From a virus (lineage: Duplodnaviria > Caudoviricetes), in IMG/VR virus record IMGVR_UViG_3300043205_000037, positions 1 through 24,602 of that record: a DNA stretch of 24,602 nucleotides; one strand, written 5' to 3'. The translations under genes were made by a program, and so were the position numbers. Under the pieces are notes generated by a model. That model was not told where the DNA came from. It worked only from the letters and a program-made list of their open reading frames with translations, and searched no databases. Every line of letters begins with the position of its first letter. Within the stretch, counting starts at the first letter, position 1. This document shows, one piece after another, positions 4,810-13,653 of this stretch.

Positions 4810-5129
4810 CGGCACCGAAAAGGCAAAGCAGATGATGCGGGCGAGCCATTCGTCGAAATCGTCCTTGTGCTGCGGCTCCTTGGTCTGGACGACCTTTGCC
4901 GCGGTCTCGCCGGGCACGAATTTTGCCCGCCGGCGCTTGGCCAGGTCGCCGGCGAAGCCCCCACCCTTCCCTCCCCCGCAAGCGGGGGAGGGTTAGGGAG
5001 GGGGAATCCTGGAACTGCTTGATCTGGTCCGGTGTCCAGCCCTGCGGCACGCCGATCAGCGCGTCGGGGATCGAGCCTTCGGTGAAATAATCGAGCTGCC
5101 AGAGCTGGCGGCGCAGCGCGATGTTGACG
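4810..5129 (-). pseudogene. Internal portal-gene fragment interrupted by a REP palindrome
   Basis: Near-identical to portal ~12511-12796 (NIALRRQLWQ...CFAFSVP). The YWDTEF codons are replaced by a REP, causing a frameshift. Confidence 0.85.
4958..5004. repeat. REP-like palindrome
   Basis: CCCCCACCCTT-CCCTCCCCCGC-AA-GCGGGGGAGGG-TTAGGGAGGGGG. Same family as the elements at 6727, 12941 and 13708. Confidence 0.8.
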
Positions 5130-6633: not shown

Positions 6634-6884
6634 CCCCTTGTGCTGCGGCTCCTTGGTCTGCACCACCTCGGCGGCCCTCTCGCCGGCACGAACTTGGTGT
6701 GGCGGCGCCCGGCGAGGTCGCCGACGCCCACACCCTTCCCTCCCCGCAAGCGGGAGAGGGTCAGGGAGGGGGTTAGTCCTCCGGACTGGCGAATCTGGCC
6801 CGGGGTCCAGCTCTGCGGCACGCCGAGCAAGGCGTCGGGGATCAAACCTTCGGTGCAGCAATCGTGCCGCCAAAGCTGGCGGCT
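6634..6884 (-). pseudogene. Degenerate portal-gene fragment with REP insertion
   Basis: Diverged copy of RQLW...TEG.IPDAL.GVPQ.WTP.QI...KFVP...VVQTKEPQHK. A REP sits at the same site as in the 4810-5129 fragment. Confidence 0.8.
6727..6772. repeat. REP-like palindrome
   Basis: CCCACACCCTTCCCTCCCCGCAAGCGGGAGAGGGTCAGGGAGGGGG. Confidence 0.75.
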
Positions 6885-7335
6885 ACGAACCATCCAGGCG
6901 ACGCGCTAATTCCTCCGCCTGCGGCAAATCGCGCTCAATGTCATGCACAACTTGTAATGACTCGTCCGCGGTCAGGAGTTTTCCCTCTTGCTCATCAAAA
7001 ACGACGCCGCCTGTCGCCCGCGCGTACGCCGTCGCCGCCATCCAAACAGCTATCAGCTCGTCAAAACCCGCTATCCAGGGGAAGGTAACAACATACTTCC
7101 AACTGTGACCGAAATTAATGTTCTTGTAGGTACTCATCAGATCCGCAGGATCCTCAATCCAACACTGAAAACTCGTTGGTCTGTCATGGAGGTGGGCGGT
7201 CAGAGTCCCACCGTCTTCATCAAACAGGACATCGTGCGCCAATCGCAAAGGCAAGCCTTCAGCGTCTAACGACCGCTGCCAGCTAGAAATTGAATCAAGT
7301 CGCGAGTCGGAGAGAACGTTGATTTCGACTGACAT
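6883..7335 (-). CDS. Putative immunity protein (family shared with 21123 and 21680)
   Basis: Follows a PD-(D/E)xK tip. Motifs VLSD.RL.SI..WQ...DAEG and W.AA.AYA.AT.GVVFD..EG shared with two paralogs that follow the homologous tip at 22157. Confidence 0.8.
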   Translation of the reverse strand: MSVEINVLSDSRLDSISSWQRSLDAEGLPLRLAHDVLFDEDGGTLTAHLHDRPTSFQCWIEDPADLMSTYKNINFGHSWKYVVTFPWIAGFDELIAVWMAATAYARATGGVVFDEQEGKLLTADESLQVVHDIERDLPQAEELARRLDGS

Positions 7336-7382
7336 CTTATTCCCTCATCCGCTTCTAGTACGCCCTGGCGTCATAGTTTTGA

Positions 7383-8822
7383 CTAGTCCGGGTCGCCCTG
7401 CTGTGACTTTATGACTGGCCCGCGCTCGATGTGCAGATCAATGACCGGGACACGGGAGACCGCTTTTGTCGCGGCACGAAGTTGGTTCGCTCTACCTGGC
7501 CTCAGGCTAGCGTCTAGGGTCTTAACATCGTAGATCGCGATTACATCACCACTATCATTGCGCAAAACAGCATCTGGCTTGACAGCCTTTCTACGGCCAC
7601 CGTAGTCGGAAGGCAAACTGAATGTGTGCTCAACATCGGAAGGACTAATGCCGCGTATCCGCTCAGCGATTACCGCGGCAGCGAACCGCTTGTGAATCAA
7701 AATTCCATAGAAACTTGGAGATAAGTGCGTCGGAGCAGTCTCGTCGACAACCCTTGCAAGAATTTCTGACAATCTTTTGGTTGTTTCATCGATTTGCTGA
7801 ATTCCTGTCCATGCATTTGGCCCATATACAATGTCCCTCGGCGGGCCGGCATATTGCTCACCCTTGGGAACATTTGACGTGTCTGGTCGTCCCTCGGTTT
7901 CCAAAGCGGCATAGCGGGTCTCGGACCTCGAACTTTCGGCGGCAACAGGTGGGAAATTGTATGGAGTCTGACTACCCTCCCCGTCCTTCGGCCGAAACTT
8001 GCCGCCACGGCCTCCTGGGGTCCCGGTCGGCCAGCCGGGATGCTCAGGATCGTCCGAGCTCGCTTTCAGAAGCGCGAGTTTTGCGGATTGCGTCTCTGCA
8101 CCCGCGCTATGCCCATTCGCGCCCGTGCGTCCGGTGTTGGCTCCCTGCCCGCCCGCATTCGCCTCGATCGGCACAAAGCCGGTGGCGGTGAGCACCATCG
8201 GGCGGTCGGCGGCGGCGTTGTCGAAGGGGTCGAGGCCGAGGGCGTCGCGCATCTCGTTGAGCGTGAGCGCACCGACTTTCAGCCGGCCTTCGAGCACCGT
8301 CTCGGGATCGCCTTCGTCCTCGTCGAGCCAATGCAGCTCGAGATCCGGCGAGGCGAATTCCTCCGCCACGATCTCGTCGATCAAATCCTTGACCCACTCC
8401 TTGGTCGGCTCGAGCCCCTCTTCCTCGGCCTGCGCCGACTGGTTGTCGGCGGTGGCGCGGTTCATCGCCTTGGTGGCCCATTGCGGCGGCACCGAAAAGG
8501 CAAAGCAGATGATGCGGGCGAGCCACTCGTCGAAATCGTCCTTGTGCTGCGGCTCCTTGGTCTGCACGACTTTGGCCGCGGTCTCGCCGGGCACGAATTT
8601 TGCCCGCCGGCGCTTGGCCAGGTCGCCGGCGAATTCGGTGTCCCAATAATCCTGGAACTGCTTGATCTGGTCCGGCGTCCAGCCCTGCGGCACGCCGATC
8701 AGCGCGTCGGGGATCGAGCCTTCGGTGAAATAATCGAGCTGCCAGAGCTGGCGGCGCAGCGCGATGTTGACGGTCATCAACACCTGCTGCACCGGCGAGA
8801 AGCCGTAGACCCGGTGGGCGCG
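7383..8822 (-). pseudogene. 5'-truncated portal-toxin cassette with PD-(D/E)xK nuclease tip
   Basis: 8148-8822 is near-identical to the portal 3' region. It continues in frame through LLKASSDDPEHPGWP..GGRGGKFRPKD to the tip YGILIH...KPDAVLR...IYDVKT. No portal N-terminus. Open from GTG 8792. Confidence 0.85.
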
Positions 8823-8859
8823 ACCTAATCGCCGATTCGCCTGATCGTGCGTTCAATAA

Positions 8860-9573
8860 TCAGTCACGGCACTCGCCGAATTCGGTTACGCGCCCGTCAT
8901 ATTTTTGGATTGAAGCGCACAAGCGGCTTGCCTCCGTAACGTCGCCTTCCTCTTTGCAGCTTCCTTTGATGCGCCAGTATTTGCCTTTGTCCTCTGCCAG
9001 CATCGGCGCTTGAACTTTAATATCATGGTGATGAGCATCAAAAAGCGCTTCGATGATGCTTGTGGCTAGCCTAGCATCAAAAACAACACCTCCGCGCGCC
9101 AATCCGGTTAAAAACATAATCCCCGACTCGGAAGCCGGGTCGGATCCTTCGTTTCTGAGCCGTGGTCCTGAAGCTGGAGCCGAATTCAAACTTGATTTCT
9201 GTTCATTATGGCCGTCGCGTATTGCTTTGACGACCAAAGGATGCGGTGGGCATCGAACATACTCGCCAAAATCGATCACTCGCGCATCACGCTTCTCAAT
9301 GGAGAGGAAGAATTCCGCAGGACCATTGATCGCTCCGTCGCGGTTTCGATTGCCTTCGACACGCCAATAATCTCCCCTATCTATCAACGACAGCGGCGAT
9401 TGCTCCCGAAGGTCGCCATAATGCGCCTCGCAAAATAACTCCGCGAGCTTGATTGCTAGGTTTTTATCGGACAAGAGGTCATCTGAGAACGTTTCCATCA
9501 TGATCACAAGCCTTGCTGTGAGATGCGATGAAATCAAGCAATTGCTTCTGTCAATGCGTCGGTTTCGATCCAC
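8860..9573 (-). CDS. Immunity protein with two tandem NTF2-fold immunity (YbbC/YhhH-like) domains
   Basis: Internal duplication: LAIKLAELFCEAHYG..QSPL...GDYWRVEG...SIEKRDARVIDFGE versus LATSIIEALFDAHH..QAPM...GKYWRIKG...SIQKYDGRVTEFGE. True start may be ATG 9501. Confidence 0.75.
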   Translation of the reverse strand: MDRNRRIDRSNCLISSHLTARLVIMMETFSDDLLSDKNLAIKLAELFCEAHYGDLREQSPLSLIDRGDYWRVEGNRNRDGAINGPAEFFLSIEKRDARVIDFGEYVRCPPHPLVVKAIRDGHNEQKSSLNSAPASGPRLRNEGSDPASESGIMFLTGLARGGVVFDARLATSIIEALFDAHHHDIKVQAPMLAEDKGKYWRIKGSCKEEGDVTEASRLCASIQKYDGRVTEFGECRD

Positions 9574-11029
9574 GCGGCAGCAGCTTAAGCGGAGGCAACT
9601 CGGTCACACTGTACTCCTTTCCCGGCCCAGGCGCTCGGATAAAGAAGACCCTCATAGGTGGAAAGGGGGCACCGGGCTCCCAGCCCAGTTCCGTAACGCG
9701 AAGATCATTGCTATAGACGTGCCACCCCAGCTGCATCATTTGAAGATAGATAGTCTGATTTGGTGTTAGAGTTATAGTTTCGTCGCCGGTCTTTATTTCA
9801 AGAACTGAGGGCCCCATGCCAGGCATAATCGCTATGATATCGGGATATCCAAGAATATCTTCCGGCAAACCGATCATATGCACGGCCGGCTCCTTGATGG
9901 CCGGTATACCGATGCTCTTAAGATAAGCCATCCAGTGATTGACATTCGCTTCGTGAAATCCCGCACTGAAGTCTACGACAGGAATCGGTGCCGCGGCGCT
10001 TGAAAAATCAGTCGCAGCATCCTTCGGGCGAAACTTTCCGCCCTTCCCTCCGGCGGTTCTTGCGGGCCATCCGGGGTGTTCAGGATCGTCCGGGCTCGCT
10101 TTTCCAAGCGCGTGATTCGCGAACCGCTTTCCCACATTTGCACTTTGCCCGTTCGCGTTGGCATTTCCGTCACTCGCCCCCTCCCCGCCCGCATTGGCCT
10201 CGATCGGCACAAAGCCCGTCGCCGTGAGCACCATCGGGCGATCGGCTGCGGCGTTGTCGAAGGGGTCGAGGCCGAGGGCGTCGCGCATTTCGTTGAGGGT
10301 AAGCGCGCCGACTTTCAACCGGCCTTCCAGCACCGTCTCGGGATCGCCCTCGTCCTCGTCGAGCCAATGCAGCTCGAGATCGGGCGAGGCAAATTCCTCC
10401 GCCACGATCTCGTCGATCAGATCCTTGACCCACTCCTTGGTCGGCTCGAGCCCCTCCTCTTCGGCCTGCGCCGATTGATTCTCCGCCGTGGCGCGGTTCA
10501 TCGCCTTGGTGGCCCATTGCGGCGGCACCGAAAAGGCAAAGCAGATGATGCGGGCGAGCCACTCGTCGAAATCGTCCTTGTGCTGTGGCTCTTTGGTCTG
10601 GACGACCTTGGCCGCCGTCTCGCCGGGCACGAATTTTGCGCGCCGCCGCTTGGCCAGGTCGCCTGCGAACTCGGTGTCCCAATAATCCTGGAACTGCTTG
10701 ATCTGGTCCGGCGTCCAGCCCTGCGGCACGCCGATCAGCGCGTCGGGGATCGAGCCTTCGGTGAAATAGTCGAGCTGCCAGAGCTGGCGGCGCAGCGCGA
10801 TATTGACCGTCATCAGCACCTGCTGCACCGGCGAAAAACCGTAGACCCGGTGAGCGCGCACGTTGCGCGGCCGGTAGACGATATCGCGCGCCGAGTAATT
10901 GACCGCGGGCAGGCCTTTGAGCACCTGCTGATAGGCCGGCGGATAGATCGTCGTGCCGTCGGCCGCGGCGAACGGCTGCGGCGTGCGGCCCCAATCGTCG
11001 ATGACGCGCTTGATGGTCGCGCCGTCGAG
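9551..11029 (-). pseudogene. 5'-truncated portal-toxin cassette with a second PD-(D/E)xK nuclease tip
   Basis: 10175-11031 is near-identical to portal 12163-13051. The frame opens after a TAG (CAG in the full portal). Junction LGKASPDDPEHPGWP..GGKGGKFRPKD. Tip GYPDII...VLEIKTG...LTPNQ. Confidence 0.85.
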
Positions 11030-11069
11030 CTATCCAATTGAGTTGGACCGCCGGCGGATTCCCTAGGTC

Positions 11070-11564
11070 TTAATCCAACACGGTACCTCGCCGAGCACCA
11101 TCATATGCGAGATCCTGAAAATCCTTCGGAAAATATTGCCGCTGAAGGTCGTCCACAATTTCATTCGCGCGAATGGAAATGCCCATATTGGGCCAATCTT
11201 TCAGGTGGTTCCACAGTCCCACCATGAGATCAATTCGCCAACCGGGAAACTCCTTCACTAGCTCCTGAAGCGCACTGACAACCGGGCGCTCCAACAGTTT
11301 GAGGTTATGAACGAAGACAACAACTTGCGGATATTCGCTATAATCGCCGTGGACCGAATAATCACCATGGCGCTGTCCTGGTAAAAAATCAGGCCTGCCA
11401 AAGCGCTCGAGCAGTGCATCGACGCGAGGGTAGAGCCGCTCAAAAACATCATATTGCTCGGCTTGGCGACGATCGTACTCGTCCCGACTCATCGTATTGA
11501 TGTCATCTCTAGTTATCATTTTCTGCTGCTCCCGATCATCGCTAGACGGCTTAGTCTGGATCAC
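11070..11564 (-). CDS. Putative immunity protein for the portal-fused toxin
   Basis: 164 aa, acidic, lower GC. Overlaps the portal-toxin stop, with GGAGG upstream of the GTG start. Confidence 0.75.
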   Translation of the reverse strand: MIQTKPSSDDREQQKMITRDDINTMSRDEYDRRQAEQYDVFERLYPRVDALLERFGRPDFLPGQRHGDYSVHGDYSEYPQVVVFVHNLKLLERPVVSALQELVKEFPGWRIDLMVGLWNHLKDWPNMGISIRANEIVDDLQRQYFPKDFQDLAYDGARRGTVLD

Positions 11565-13653
11565 CGCCCCTGCCTCCTCTTATTCCGCGCGGGCCGTAAA
11601 CACGAATATATCTCAATACTTCCCGTTGGATCTTTAGTACCAGTCCATGAATTCTGGGCTCGCTCGACGCCTTAACTTCCTCGATGAGTTCGCGCGCTTG
11701 ATCCGGTGTCATCTGCTCAGAGGTTATCTTATTCCTATTCAAGTAGGCTTCAAATAGCTCATCTACCGCCTCGTTGTATTCAATATGCTCTGCGTTGTTC
11801 CTATTAACGCTTGGATCAGCAAGTGTGCCCGACTTCGTCTTATCAAAGACCTCCCATGTTTCCGGCTTGATGTCCTTTTTATTGTAAACCACCTTCGGAA
11901 CCCAATGATGCCCCTCACCATATCTCTGATAGCGCACCAGGGCATCATCGGGCCCATCCGATTTATCATTCTCATCATCGGCTGCTGCAATTCTAGTCCA
12001 CTGGCCAGCGCCAGGATTGCGCTTGGGCACACGTGGTTCACCAGGGTCGTAACCATATTTTTGAATGAGAGGTGTCCCGTTATTTCGCTTGCGGAGGCTC
12101 GATATATTGGTTTGTTGAGCAACAACTAGTTGTTCACCCCCGCTTTGCTCGCCAGCGTCTTTCGCCCCTTCCCCGCCCGCATTCGCCTCGATCGGCACAT
12201 AACCCGTCGCCGTGAGCACCATCGGGCGGTCGGCGGCGGCGTTGTCGAAGGGGTCGAGGCCGAGCGCGTCGCGCATCTCGTTGAGCGTGAGCGCGCCGAC
12301 TTTCAGCCGGCTTTCGAGCACCGTCTCGGGATCGCCTTCGTCCTCGTCGAGCCAATGCAGCTCGAGATCGGGCGACGAAAATTCCTCCGCCACGATCTCG
12401 TCGATCAAATCCTTGACCCATTCCTTGGTCGGCTCGAGCCCCTCCTCTTCGGCCTGCGCCGATTGATTCTCCGCGGTGGCGCGGTTCATCGTCTTGGTGG
12501 CCCATTGCGGCGGCACCGAAAACGCAAAGCAGATGATGCGGGCGAGCCATTCGTCGAAATCGTCCTTGTGCTGCGGCTCCTTGGTCTGGACGACCTTTGC
12601 CGCGGTCTCGCCGGGCACGAATTTTGCCCGCCGGCGCTTGGCCAGGTCGCCGGCGAATTCGGTGTCCCAATAATCCTGGAACTGCTTGATCTGGTCCGGC
12701 GTCCAGCCCTGCGGCACGCCGATCAGCGCGTCGGGGATCGAGCCTTCGGTGAAATAATCGAGCTGCCAGAGCTGACGGCGCAGCGCGATGTTGACGGTCA
12801 TCAGCACCTGCTGCACCGGCGAGAAGCCGTAGACCCGGTGGGCGCGCACGTTGCGCGGCCGGTAGACGATGTCGCGCGCCGAATAATTGACCGCCGGCAG
12901 GCCTTTGAGCACCTGCTGATAGGCCGGCGGATAGACCATTCCCCCACCCTTCCCTCCCCCGCTTGCGGGGGAGGATAGGAGGGGGTCCCAATACGGCTGC
13001 GGCGTGCGGCCCCAATCGTCGATCACGCGCTTGATGGTCGCGCCGTCGAGCTGCTGCAGCGCGCAGAGCTGGCCGGAGCGCGTGCGCTGGCAATACAGCG
13101 TCGCCGCGTCGATGACGAACATGTCCTCGAGCAGCGCCCGCAGCCAGGTCTTCCAGCGCGTGATGCCGTCGGGCTTTTGCAAGAAAGCCTCGATGCCGGC
13201 GATGCGCGCGGTCACGTCGGGATCGATCGCGGCGCTGCGACGCTTGGATTTTGCATCGCGCGGCCGGATGCGCCAGCGCTGGCGCTCCATCTGGTCCTTG
13301 CGTGTCTCGATGACCAGCCGCAACAGATCGTAGGCGTCGGCGAAACCGCGCAGCTCGGCAAAACCGATGCTCTCGTAGGCACGCGGCCGGGTGACGAGGT
13401 TGTAGCCGGGCGGGAAGTCGAACCGCCTGCCGGCGACGTCGGGCGGCGCGATCGGCCGCATCGGGTCGAGCGGGCCGAACCAGTCGGCGCCCGAGCCGCG
13501 CGCAATGCCATTGCTTGACGTGGCTTGGCTCGACGTGCCTTGGCTCGACGTGCCTTGGCTCGACGTGCTTTGGCTTTGGCCGTAGGACACCTGGATCTGA
13601 TACGGCGACAGCGGCCAAGTCGGCTGGCCGGCGCCGCGCACCTGTTCGCTCAT
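11551..13653 (-). CDS. Phage portal protein fused to a C-terminal HNH/AHH-like nuclease toxin (700 aa)
   Basis: Start MSEQVRG with AGGA RBS. Portal motifs LEDMFVIDA, LDGATIK, YGFSPV, YFTEGSIP, ICFAFSVPP, LTLNEMR..LGLDP. Then KYGYDPGEPRVPKRNPGAGQWT and a lower-GC tip GHHWVP...H.EYN..V. Lies between terminase and protease. Confidence 0.9.
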   Translation of the reverse strand: MSEQVRGAGQPTWPLSPYQIQVSYGQSQSTSSQGTSSQGTSSQATSSNGIARGSGADWFGPLDPMRPIAPPDVAGRRFDFPPGYNLVTRPRAYESIGFAELRGFADAYDLLRLVIETRKDQMERQRWRIRPRDAKSKRRSAAIDPDVTARIAGIEAFLQKPDGITRWKTWLRALLEDMFVIDAATLYCQRTRSGQLCALQQLDGATIKRVIDDWGRTPQPYWDPLLSSPASGGGKGGGMVYPPAYQQVLKGLPAVNYSARDIVYRPRNVRAHRVYGFSPVQQVLMTVNIALRRQLWQLDYFTEGSIPDALIGVPQGWTPDQIKQFQDYWDTEFAGDLAKRRRAKFVPGETAAKVVQTKEPQHKDDFDEWLARIICFAFSVPPQWATKTMNRATAENQSAQAEEEGLEPTKEWVKDLIDEIVAEEFSSPDLELHWLDEDEGDPETVLESRLKVGALTLNEMRDALGLDPFDNAAADRPMVLTATGYVPIEANAGGEGAKDAGEQSGGEQLVVAQQTNISSLRKRNNGTPLIQKYGYDPGEPRVPKRNPGAGQWTRIAAADDENDKSDGPDDALVRYQRYGEGHHWVPKVVYNKKDIKPETWEVFDKTKSGTLADPSVNRNNAEHIEYNEAVDELFEAYLNRNKITSEQMTPDQARELIEEVKASSEPRIHGLVLKIQREVLRYIRVYGPRGIRGGRGGDPD
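12941..12985. repeat. REP-like palindrome inserted in frame in the portal gene
   Basis: CCCCCACCCTTCCCTCCCCCGCTTGCGGGGGAGGATAGGAGGGGG, translated as PLLSSPASGGGKGG. Absent from the portal copy at ~10947-10975. Confidence 0.85.
13524..13568. repeat. 15-bp tandem repeat, 3 perfect copies
   Basis: CTTGGCTCGACGTGC x3, encoding TSSQG/TSSQA repeats in the portal N-terminus. Confidence 0.9.

Follow-up and report, generated by a model that had tools for sequence, protein, structure and literature searches.

In this study we analysed a stretch of 24,602 nucleotides from a virus record assigned to the Caudoviricetes (IMG/VR IMGVR_UViG_3300043205_000037, positions 1 to 24,602; this whole stretch is called the window below), in which a phage portal gene is followed by truncated copies of itself. 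The portal encoded by a fixed cluster for a phage-like particle probably has a variable and likely toxic C-terminal tip; the truncated copies behind it are likely displaced tips that could likely be loaded again through recombination in the portal arm. The head module lies on the minus strand and contains the large terminase subunit (17379-15844; PF17289, PF04466, PF03237), a portal of 700 aa (13653-11551) and a likely XkdF-like prohead protease (1487-321; PHROG head maturation protease, E 3e-7; PF14550, E 8e-5, below the cut-off). Pfam and PHROG profile searches place the tip-bearing portal in this terminase-portal-protease module. The portal consists of a 494-aa core (PF04860, E 5e-16; phrog_2662, E 2e-71) and a tip of 206 aa (12171-11551). 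Behind this active tip follows its likely immunity gene (minus strand, 11070-11564, start uncertain).

BLAST of the full portal open reading frame (ORF, 13653-11551) against the window recovered two copies of its 3' part, at 11031-10168 (C1) and 8822-8137 (C2). Cassette C1 comprises an arm corresponding to portal residues of about 202-494 (10184-11031), a tip (9551-10183) and an immunity gene (8860-9573, likely start near 9501); cassette C2 comprises an arm of residues of about 270-494 (8148-8822), a tip (7383-8147) and a likely immunity gene (6883-7335), all on the minus strand. Both reading frames are open from the truncated 5' end through the motif PIEANAGG into the tips, in the portal frame, and the tips measure 210 aa in C1 and 254 aa in C2. 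The original prediction had described two near-identical, 5'-truncated portal copies that run in frame into different tips and differ mostly at synonymous sites, and all of this was borne out. Over 224 shared codons the full gene and the C1 arm are 94.6% identical in nucleotides, with 32 synonymous and 4 non-synonymous differences (ratio of non-synonymous to synonymous rates, dN/dS, 0.032); the C2 arm is 96.0% identical to the full gene (22 and 5 differences, dN/dS 0.061), and the two arms differ from each other at 38 synonymous sites and a single non-synonymous one (dN/dS 0.007). The synonymous excess is significant (Fisher p <= 7e-11), synonymous divergence reaches 0.16-0.30, and the GC content of third codon positions is 0.86 in the arm but drops to 0.48-0.56 once the tips begin. 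C1 lacks a palindromic insert of the full gene and is therefore not a recent copy of this portal allele. All amino-acid variants of the window arms recur among 52 intact full-length cores and none is private, which suggests that the arms were functional until recently. Their synonymous divergence appears to have built up in different lineages, and the low dN/dS of the silent arms is read here as a mark of descent from recently functional portal alleles, not as proof of selection as a reserve.

An in-frame TAG lies directly upstream of the C1 arm; an in-frame start led by a Shine-Dalgarno motif was not found in C1, and C2 has one weak TTG. The arms begin at arbitrary portal residues that differ between arms. 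The genes behind the active tip and behind C2 have clear ribosome-binding motifs. A promoter scan found promoter-like sites at chance level (4 versus 3.3 expected), and two RNA runs contained small shares only, mostly of relatives and of the palindromic repeat. For Salmonella rhs, internal expression has been reported (PMC7043789).

Since the window is a single metagenomic virus record and the arms are repeats, the tandem array could in principle consist of strain variants joined by mis-assembly. We regard this as very improbable: virus record L104 is 100% identical over window positions 8624-12720, the truncated 5' ends form unique junctions, similar arrays occur on contigs of 0.1-4 Mb, and contigs of two public runs span tip and neighbour, from the end of one arm to the start of the following one, at depths like those of the flanks. 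Contig depth, a crude measure, was 44.7-56.8 at the bridges and 52.9-62.5 in the flanks in X1, and 33-35.3 and 34.8-39.8 in X2, where the active tip is uncovered; both runs may be the source of the window, and two bridges have 30 letters on the arm side. The layout also recurs. Relatives were taken from the best 80 of 175 virus-record stretches, some of them redundant, and from genomes, and counts are restricted to related loci in which a full portal is followed by at least 4 kb of sequence, leaving out L041-L058 (overlapping fetches and tip-only loci). In 16 of 19 genomes and 22 of 27 virus records the portal has truncated arms behind it, and 6 and 15 of these, respectively, keep an intact arm together with its tip; none of nine distant portals, counted apart, is followed by such arms. 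Mis-assembly, named in the original prediction as what would overturn it, is thereby largely refuted for the window array.

Across the relatives the portal core is a conserved N-terminal carrier of exchangeable tips, with 10 multi-member tip families among 117 tips. Related full portals carry named toxin domains, such as a CdiA-CT RNase A (L007, E 2e-16) and a barnase-type RNase (L029). Recognisable toxin domains belong to family members on other portals, and the three tips of the window are tentatively assigned at the level of motif and fold. The active tip is likely an AHH/HNH-type nuclease: AHH was matched in 5 of 16 members of its family (best E 5e-5), the window's own tip being unmatched, and Atlas leads point to Tox-GHH2/Tox-SHH at 0.91. 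The C1 tip has invariant D52 and K68, and its structural model (pLDDT, the predicted local distance difference test, 83.7) is predicted to resemble PD-(D/E)XK nucleases, the top Foldseek matches including Holliday-junction resolvases, Exo5 and AdnA, none at E <= 0.001. The C2 tip, likely of the same nuclease type, shows an invariant D...D-x-K pattern (D88, D103, K105) in 24 members, none of which has a Pfam match; weak Atlas leads point to Tox-REase-9 (0.89) and VRR-NUC (0.88).

The genes behind the tips follow tip identity closely. Among 85 distinct tips with a downstream ORF, one neighbour family was found per tip family (27/27 for C2, 16/16 for the active tip, 9/10 and 7/7 for two others), and 558 same-same pairs were counted against at most 149 in 2000 permutations. 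The neighbour of the active tip occurs with no other tip family and has no Pfam match. Immunity-type profiles matched in the window are PF15631 and barstar. The label immunity gene for the C1 neighbour (Imm-NTF2-2, coupled in 2/2 cases) is supported by PF15631 (E 1e-8) together with the strict coupling. The earlier claim that each cassette brings its own immunity gene gains sequence-based support from PF15631 for C1 and from strict family coupling. Two tandem paralogues of the C2 immunity family stand behind one toxin (22123-21680 and 21668-21123) as a small poly-immunity run. A further family of hydrophobic, likely membrane-located, immunity-like genes (14777-14046, 18200-17502, 18788-18228, 19838-19278, 3268-2933) is positioned after Ntox44-like tips, several members standing without a toxin.

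Tips are found in both silent and loaded positions. Seven of the 10 multi-member families occur on full as well as truncated portals. The C1 tip sits on a full-length portal of 688 aa (P0003, 83% identity), and the window's active tip on a truncated one (P0035). P0003 and P0035 agree in the length of their longest contig (150,789), a hint that the two may belong to a mirror-image array. A genome search with the single C1 tip gave no match, and a metagenome search with an alignment as query gave 9 loci. Pairs of related strains place the exchange within the arms. L005 and L010 are orthologous loci with backbones 93-95% identical that share a block of about 1.83 kb, tip plus immunity region, with 8 mismatches (99.6% identity). 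The block is silent in L005 and loaded in L010; its two ends lie in arms, one about 68 nt short of an arm's end and the other about 46 nt into the next arm. Its few differing sites and the position of both ends in arms point to a recent transfer between lineages with crossovers in the portal arms. Likewise, the tip of the first cassette of L070 is found on the full gene in L071 and L072, strains about 99% alike with single-nucleotide polymorphisms (SNPs) of their own; the switch falls between two diagnostic sites 16 nt apart, adjoining an identical tract of 310 bp. The comparison of related strains thus maps crossover points inside portal arms, and the tips do occur on full-length portals of relatives (P0003, L010 against L005, L071/L072 against L070), contrary to the second way in which the original prediction could have failed. 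Junctions of this main/orphan type are seen between strains, and L059, which may be an assembler path, is a candidate for one within a population.

In L059, a record of the window's own strain, the full portal (748 aa, P0037) ends in the C2 tip. The record switches in a 176-bp tract in which the full portal (12774-12599) is identical to the C2 arm (8750-8575), and the block from 12657 downwards is repeated through a decayed arm, whose segment 4956-4823 is identical to 12657-12524 and forms the second switch point. L059 and L068 were dropped as proof of promotion, both being SNP-free mosaics that switch within long identical tracts.

The order of the cassettes bears on the direction of exchange. 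In 11 of 12 mixed arrays, from 16 arrays with at least two arms, the intact cassettes come first and the decayed ones after them; this count excludes 11 redundant or doubtful records, among them L059. This polarity, together with the lack of private amino-acid changes, suggests that the cassettes are likely displaced, recently active tips as much as a reserve. Displacement is favoured as the route by which the arrays form, and a reserve model is mechanically possible beside it. The original prediction is supported in that tips are shared with full portals; the polarity favours displacement, and a single swap may have been either a promotion or a displacement. The cassettes might also be nothing but leftovers of displacement that persist for the sake of their immunity genes and never return to useful service within a lineage. 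The polarity agrees with this, as do the many tipless arms whose neighbour genes persist; the same reading has been published for Acinetobacter cdi orphans (PMC6336857), and the difference of L070 from L071 and L072 can also be read as an insertion in L070. However, arms of 675-850 bp at about 95% identity match the recombining Salmonella rhs substrate (522 bp, 95%), the layout of L059 is exactly that of the duplication-plus-crossover model for Salmonella rhs (both from PMC3967940), and L064 and L087 carry arrays of three to four fully intact cassettes. We therefore consider it unlikely that the cassettes are by-products only.

Several observations weigh against displaced but reloadable toxic tips. 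The three window tips themselves match no Pfam or NCBIfam profile, and their toxicity is a prediction from sequence. An arm with its tip survives intact only in the 6 of 19 genomes mentioned above, and some full portals are interrupted or short-tipped, which makes decay or sequencing error a common feature. Private SNPs are absent from L059, whose switches fall within identical tracts of 176 and 134 bp, the duplicated part is not covered twice as deeply by the contigs of two runs, and L104 agrees with the path of the window; for these reasons L059 is counted as ambiguous, and this sole same-strain recombinant may be an assembler path. L068 against L061 shows the same ambiguity with an identical tract of 323 bp. 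One array, L071, breaks the polarity, and a pairwise comparison looks alike whether a tip was promoted by deletion or displaced by an insertion.

The hosts are a group of uncultured soil bacteria, soil Xanthobacteraceae, in which the element occupies a largely fixed site. Of 21 genome loci, 18 have aspS within the 10 kb upstream; in one other it is 12 kb distant, and in another 45 kb. In L012 (G309:C42) the element sits 45 kb from aspS amid ordinary host genes, with no integrase seen in between. On the contig of L059, aspS is found about 2.5 kb past the window end (24602); on L120 it lies at the same distance and is followed by a conserved ORF of 153 aa and a CI-like repressor. The virus record is probably a piece of host chromosome. 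In G001 the cluster of about 44 kb has the order aspS, CI-like repressor, GcrA, terminase, portal, cassettes, protease, capsid, connector, tail, hub genes of the gene transfer agent (GTA) type, and lysin. A Pfam/PHROG scan of its 34 genes found no integrase or replication gene, unlinked helper genes not being part of this search, and none was seen in G002, G003 and G005 by ORF reading only. The portal is present in 30 of 151 genus genomes and 4 of 251 family genomes, and the matches of each genome fall at one locus where contigs allow. An ordinary defective prophage at an integration hotspot, whose pairs serve as addiction modules only and whose tips are not delivered by particles, would explain the CI-like repressor and lysis genes, the frequent frameshifts, the patchy presence in the genus and the weak correlation with aspS distances (rho -0.08 to 0.23). 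Yet the site is the same in 18 of 21 loci, no integrase or replication gene is seen between aspS and lysis, the structural genes are under purifying selection (dN/dS 0.09-0.30, with 0.125 for aspS), and two clades are common to the aspS and terminase trees, which leaves a defective prophage improbable. The element and aspS span a similar divergence range, and co-descent of the two is weakly supported by these comparisons.

These observations suggest a possible course of events. DNA from a foreign lineage, consisting of arm, tip, immunity gene and arm, would recombine into the portal and push the old tip and its immunity gene downstream. Arrays would gain at the front and decay at the back, while immunity genes with their own starts would preserve a memory of former tips. 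Stored tips could be promoted when the full gene crosses over with an arm, either through a deletion or following a duplication that spares the old immunity gene. The proposal that one crossover loads a new toxin agrees with the arm exchange between strains, but a single crossover would delete the current immunity gene. Portals are dodecamers whose C-termini face the capsid interior, and the tips would hang from the portal inside the prohead. In 99 of 117 tips a PDQPR- or PDDPEHP-like motif comes after a Lys; the residue two places ahead of this Lys is L, V, I or F in 75 of the 76 matches obtained with 90 distinct tips, and the capsid N-terminus has sites of similar pattern. The prohead protease may accordingly be predicted to cut the tips off after [LVIF]-x-K, and the freed tips would be ejected into the target cell. 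Taken to its full extent, the element might be a domesticated, non-replicating particle that serves as weapon and gene-transfer vehicle, in which twelve portal subunits load protease-released toxins into every head, non-immune relatives are killed, carried DNA re-arms survivors through recombination of a new tip into their portal gene and an ordered record of toxins and immunity genes is left; we offer this scenario tentatively, as a possibility we would not yet favour.

Beyond the two cassettes, the window contains remnants of older arms and repeats. Decayed arms with palindrome insertions lie on the minus strand at 6636-6883 (tipless, 68% to the full portal) and 4810-5129, and an AT-richer nucleotidyltransferase (PF12281) + DUF1488 gene (6526-5177) sits between them. 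Palindromes resembling repetitive extragenic palindromes have entered portal arms repeatedly (12985-12938, 13742-13708, 6773-6727, 5004-4958). The one inside the full gene (about 12938-12985), missing from C1, is translated in frame, and the same insert is present in P0003; in other runs the palindrome site has many loose ends, which shows a dispersed repeat. A second carrier family of about 80 aa, with no known domain, bears variable tips behind the same Lys-linked motif (2796-1789, 4779-3956, 15847-14774, 20996-19851, 23308-22157), among them barnase plus barstar, weak Ntox44 and one C2-family tip. The C1 tip is also found on this small carrier (P0004), and P0013 fuses the small carrier to a portal-arm end, so that tips evidently pass from one carrier to another. 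Further N-terminal carriers (P0005, P0006; L044:6384-7820), unlike the portal or the small carrier, bear a C1-family tip or similar motifs. In three genomes a gene for a Tle1-like phospholipase lies on the opposite strand in the head module (L041:5072-6316, L045:4643-5911, L047:15717-16889); PF09994 was scanned in L041, the other two being similar ORFs.

A conserved N-terminal carrier with variable C-terminal domains, family-coupled genes directly behind the tips and orphan cassettes homologous to the main gene mark the locus as a probable polymorphic toxin system. The array resembles several known systems without coinciding with any of them. Orphan rhs-CT/rhsI and cdiA-CT/cdiI modules (Koskiniemi 2014, PMC3967940; PMC6336857) likewise have a truncated arm of about 95% identity, another tip and an immunity gene of their own, and these reports describe recombination after duplication and stepwise downstream displacement. 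Unlike Rhs and CdiA, the anchor here is a structural gene of a phage capsid and delivery is predicted to occur by a tailed particle; the profile search found no Rhs or CdiA scaffold at the locus, the portal domain being the sole match. MuF toxins of temperate phages (Jamet 2017, PMC5576092; Zhang 2012, PMC3482391; Bxa, PMC11699363) also combine a variable toxin with an immunity gene in the head module and are predicted to be packed in the capsid. In contrast, the window portal and its cassettes lack PF04233 (MuF), which the same scan detects on distant relatives, and the tip is fused directly to the portal; the main text of Jamet 2017 does not use the words orphan or truncated. The layout works like an Rhs or contact-dependent inhibition orphan array and like a MuF toxin locus, yet it lacks the defining domain of both. 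Portal-effector fusions with PBECR, 2H, InPase, Nudix and ART domains are known (Iyer 2017, PMC5512222; Iyer 2022, PMC9503650); in the accessible parts of these papers they are single genes and no truncated-portal arrays are described. Among our 54 long relatives 35 carry MuF, and 14 carry ART, Acb1, zeta, RNase, PBECR, InPase or phosphatase domains. Related phage portals P0048, P0070, P0076 and P0081 have C-terminal Acb1 domains, directed against the cyclic-oligonucleotide-based antiphage signalling system. The replicative relative L108, with an SNF2 helicase, has a plain portal, and more distant relatives such as Brevundimonas phage Polewnik have portal-MuF fusions. Polewnik and Strzyga are the closest isolated phages (portal core 51% identical). 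Polewnik shares the order terminase, portal, two genes, connector and a capsid N-terminus like that of the element; its portal, however, is fused to MuF, the phage has nucleotide-metabolism genes, and the records of both phages show one portal place each. Gene transfer agents (PMC11841831) are similar as head-tail clusters at a fixed site that lack replication genes, and the tail genes of the element belong to the DUF2460, BR0599 and Rcc01698 families. The element differs from them by its own CI-like repressor and lysis genes, its size of about 44 kb with cargo and its patchy presence. Neither arrays of truncated-portal cassettes nor this element turned up in the literature searched, although loci of this kind may be listed in the supplements of Zhang 2012, Jamet 2017 and Iyer 2017.

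Fusions of portals with effectors have been described, as have orphan cassettes; their combination was not met in the literature searched and appears new. Cassette switching has so far been a matter of secreted scaffolds such as Rhs and CdiA, and capsid toxins one of single genes; here a structural gene of the virion is the recombination anchor, and a capsid gene is likely a docking site for toxin exchange. Dozens of soil genomes carry portal-anchored arrays, with natural before-and-after pairs among them. If particles are made, they would represent a further route of toxin delivery between bacteria. The purpose of phage-head toxins would also become directly testable, since the likely toxins and immunity genes, the predicted cleavage site and the switch points have each been located.

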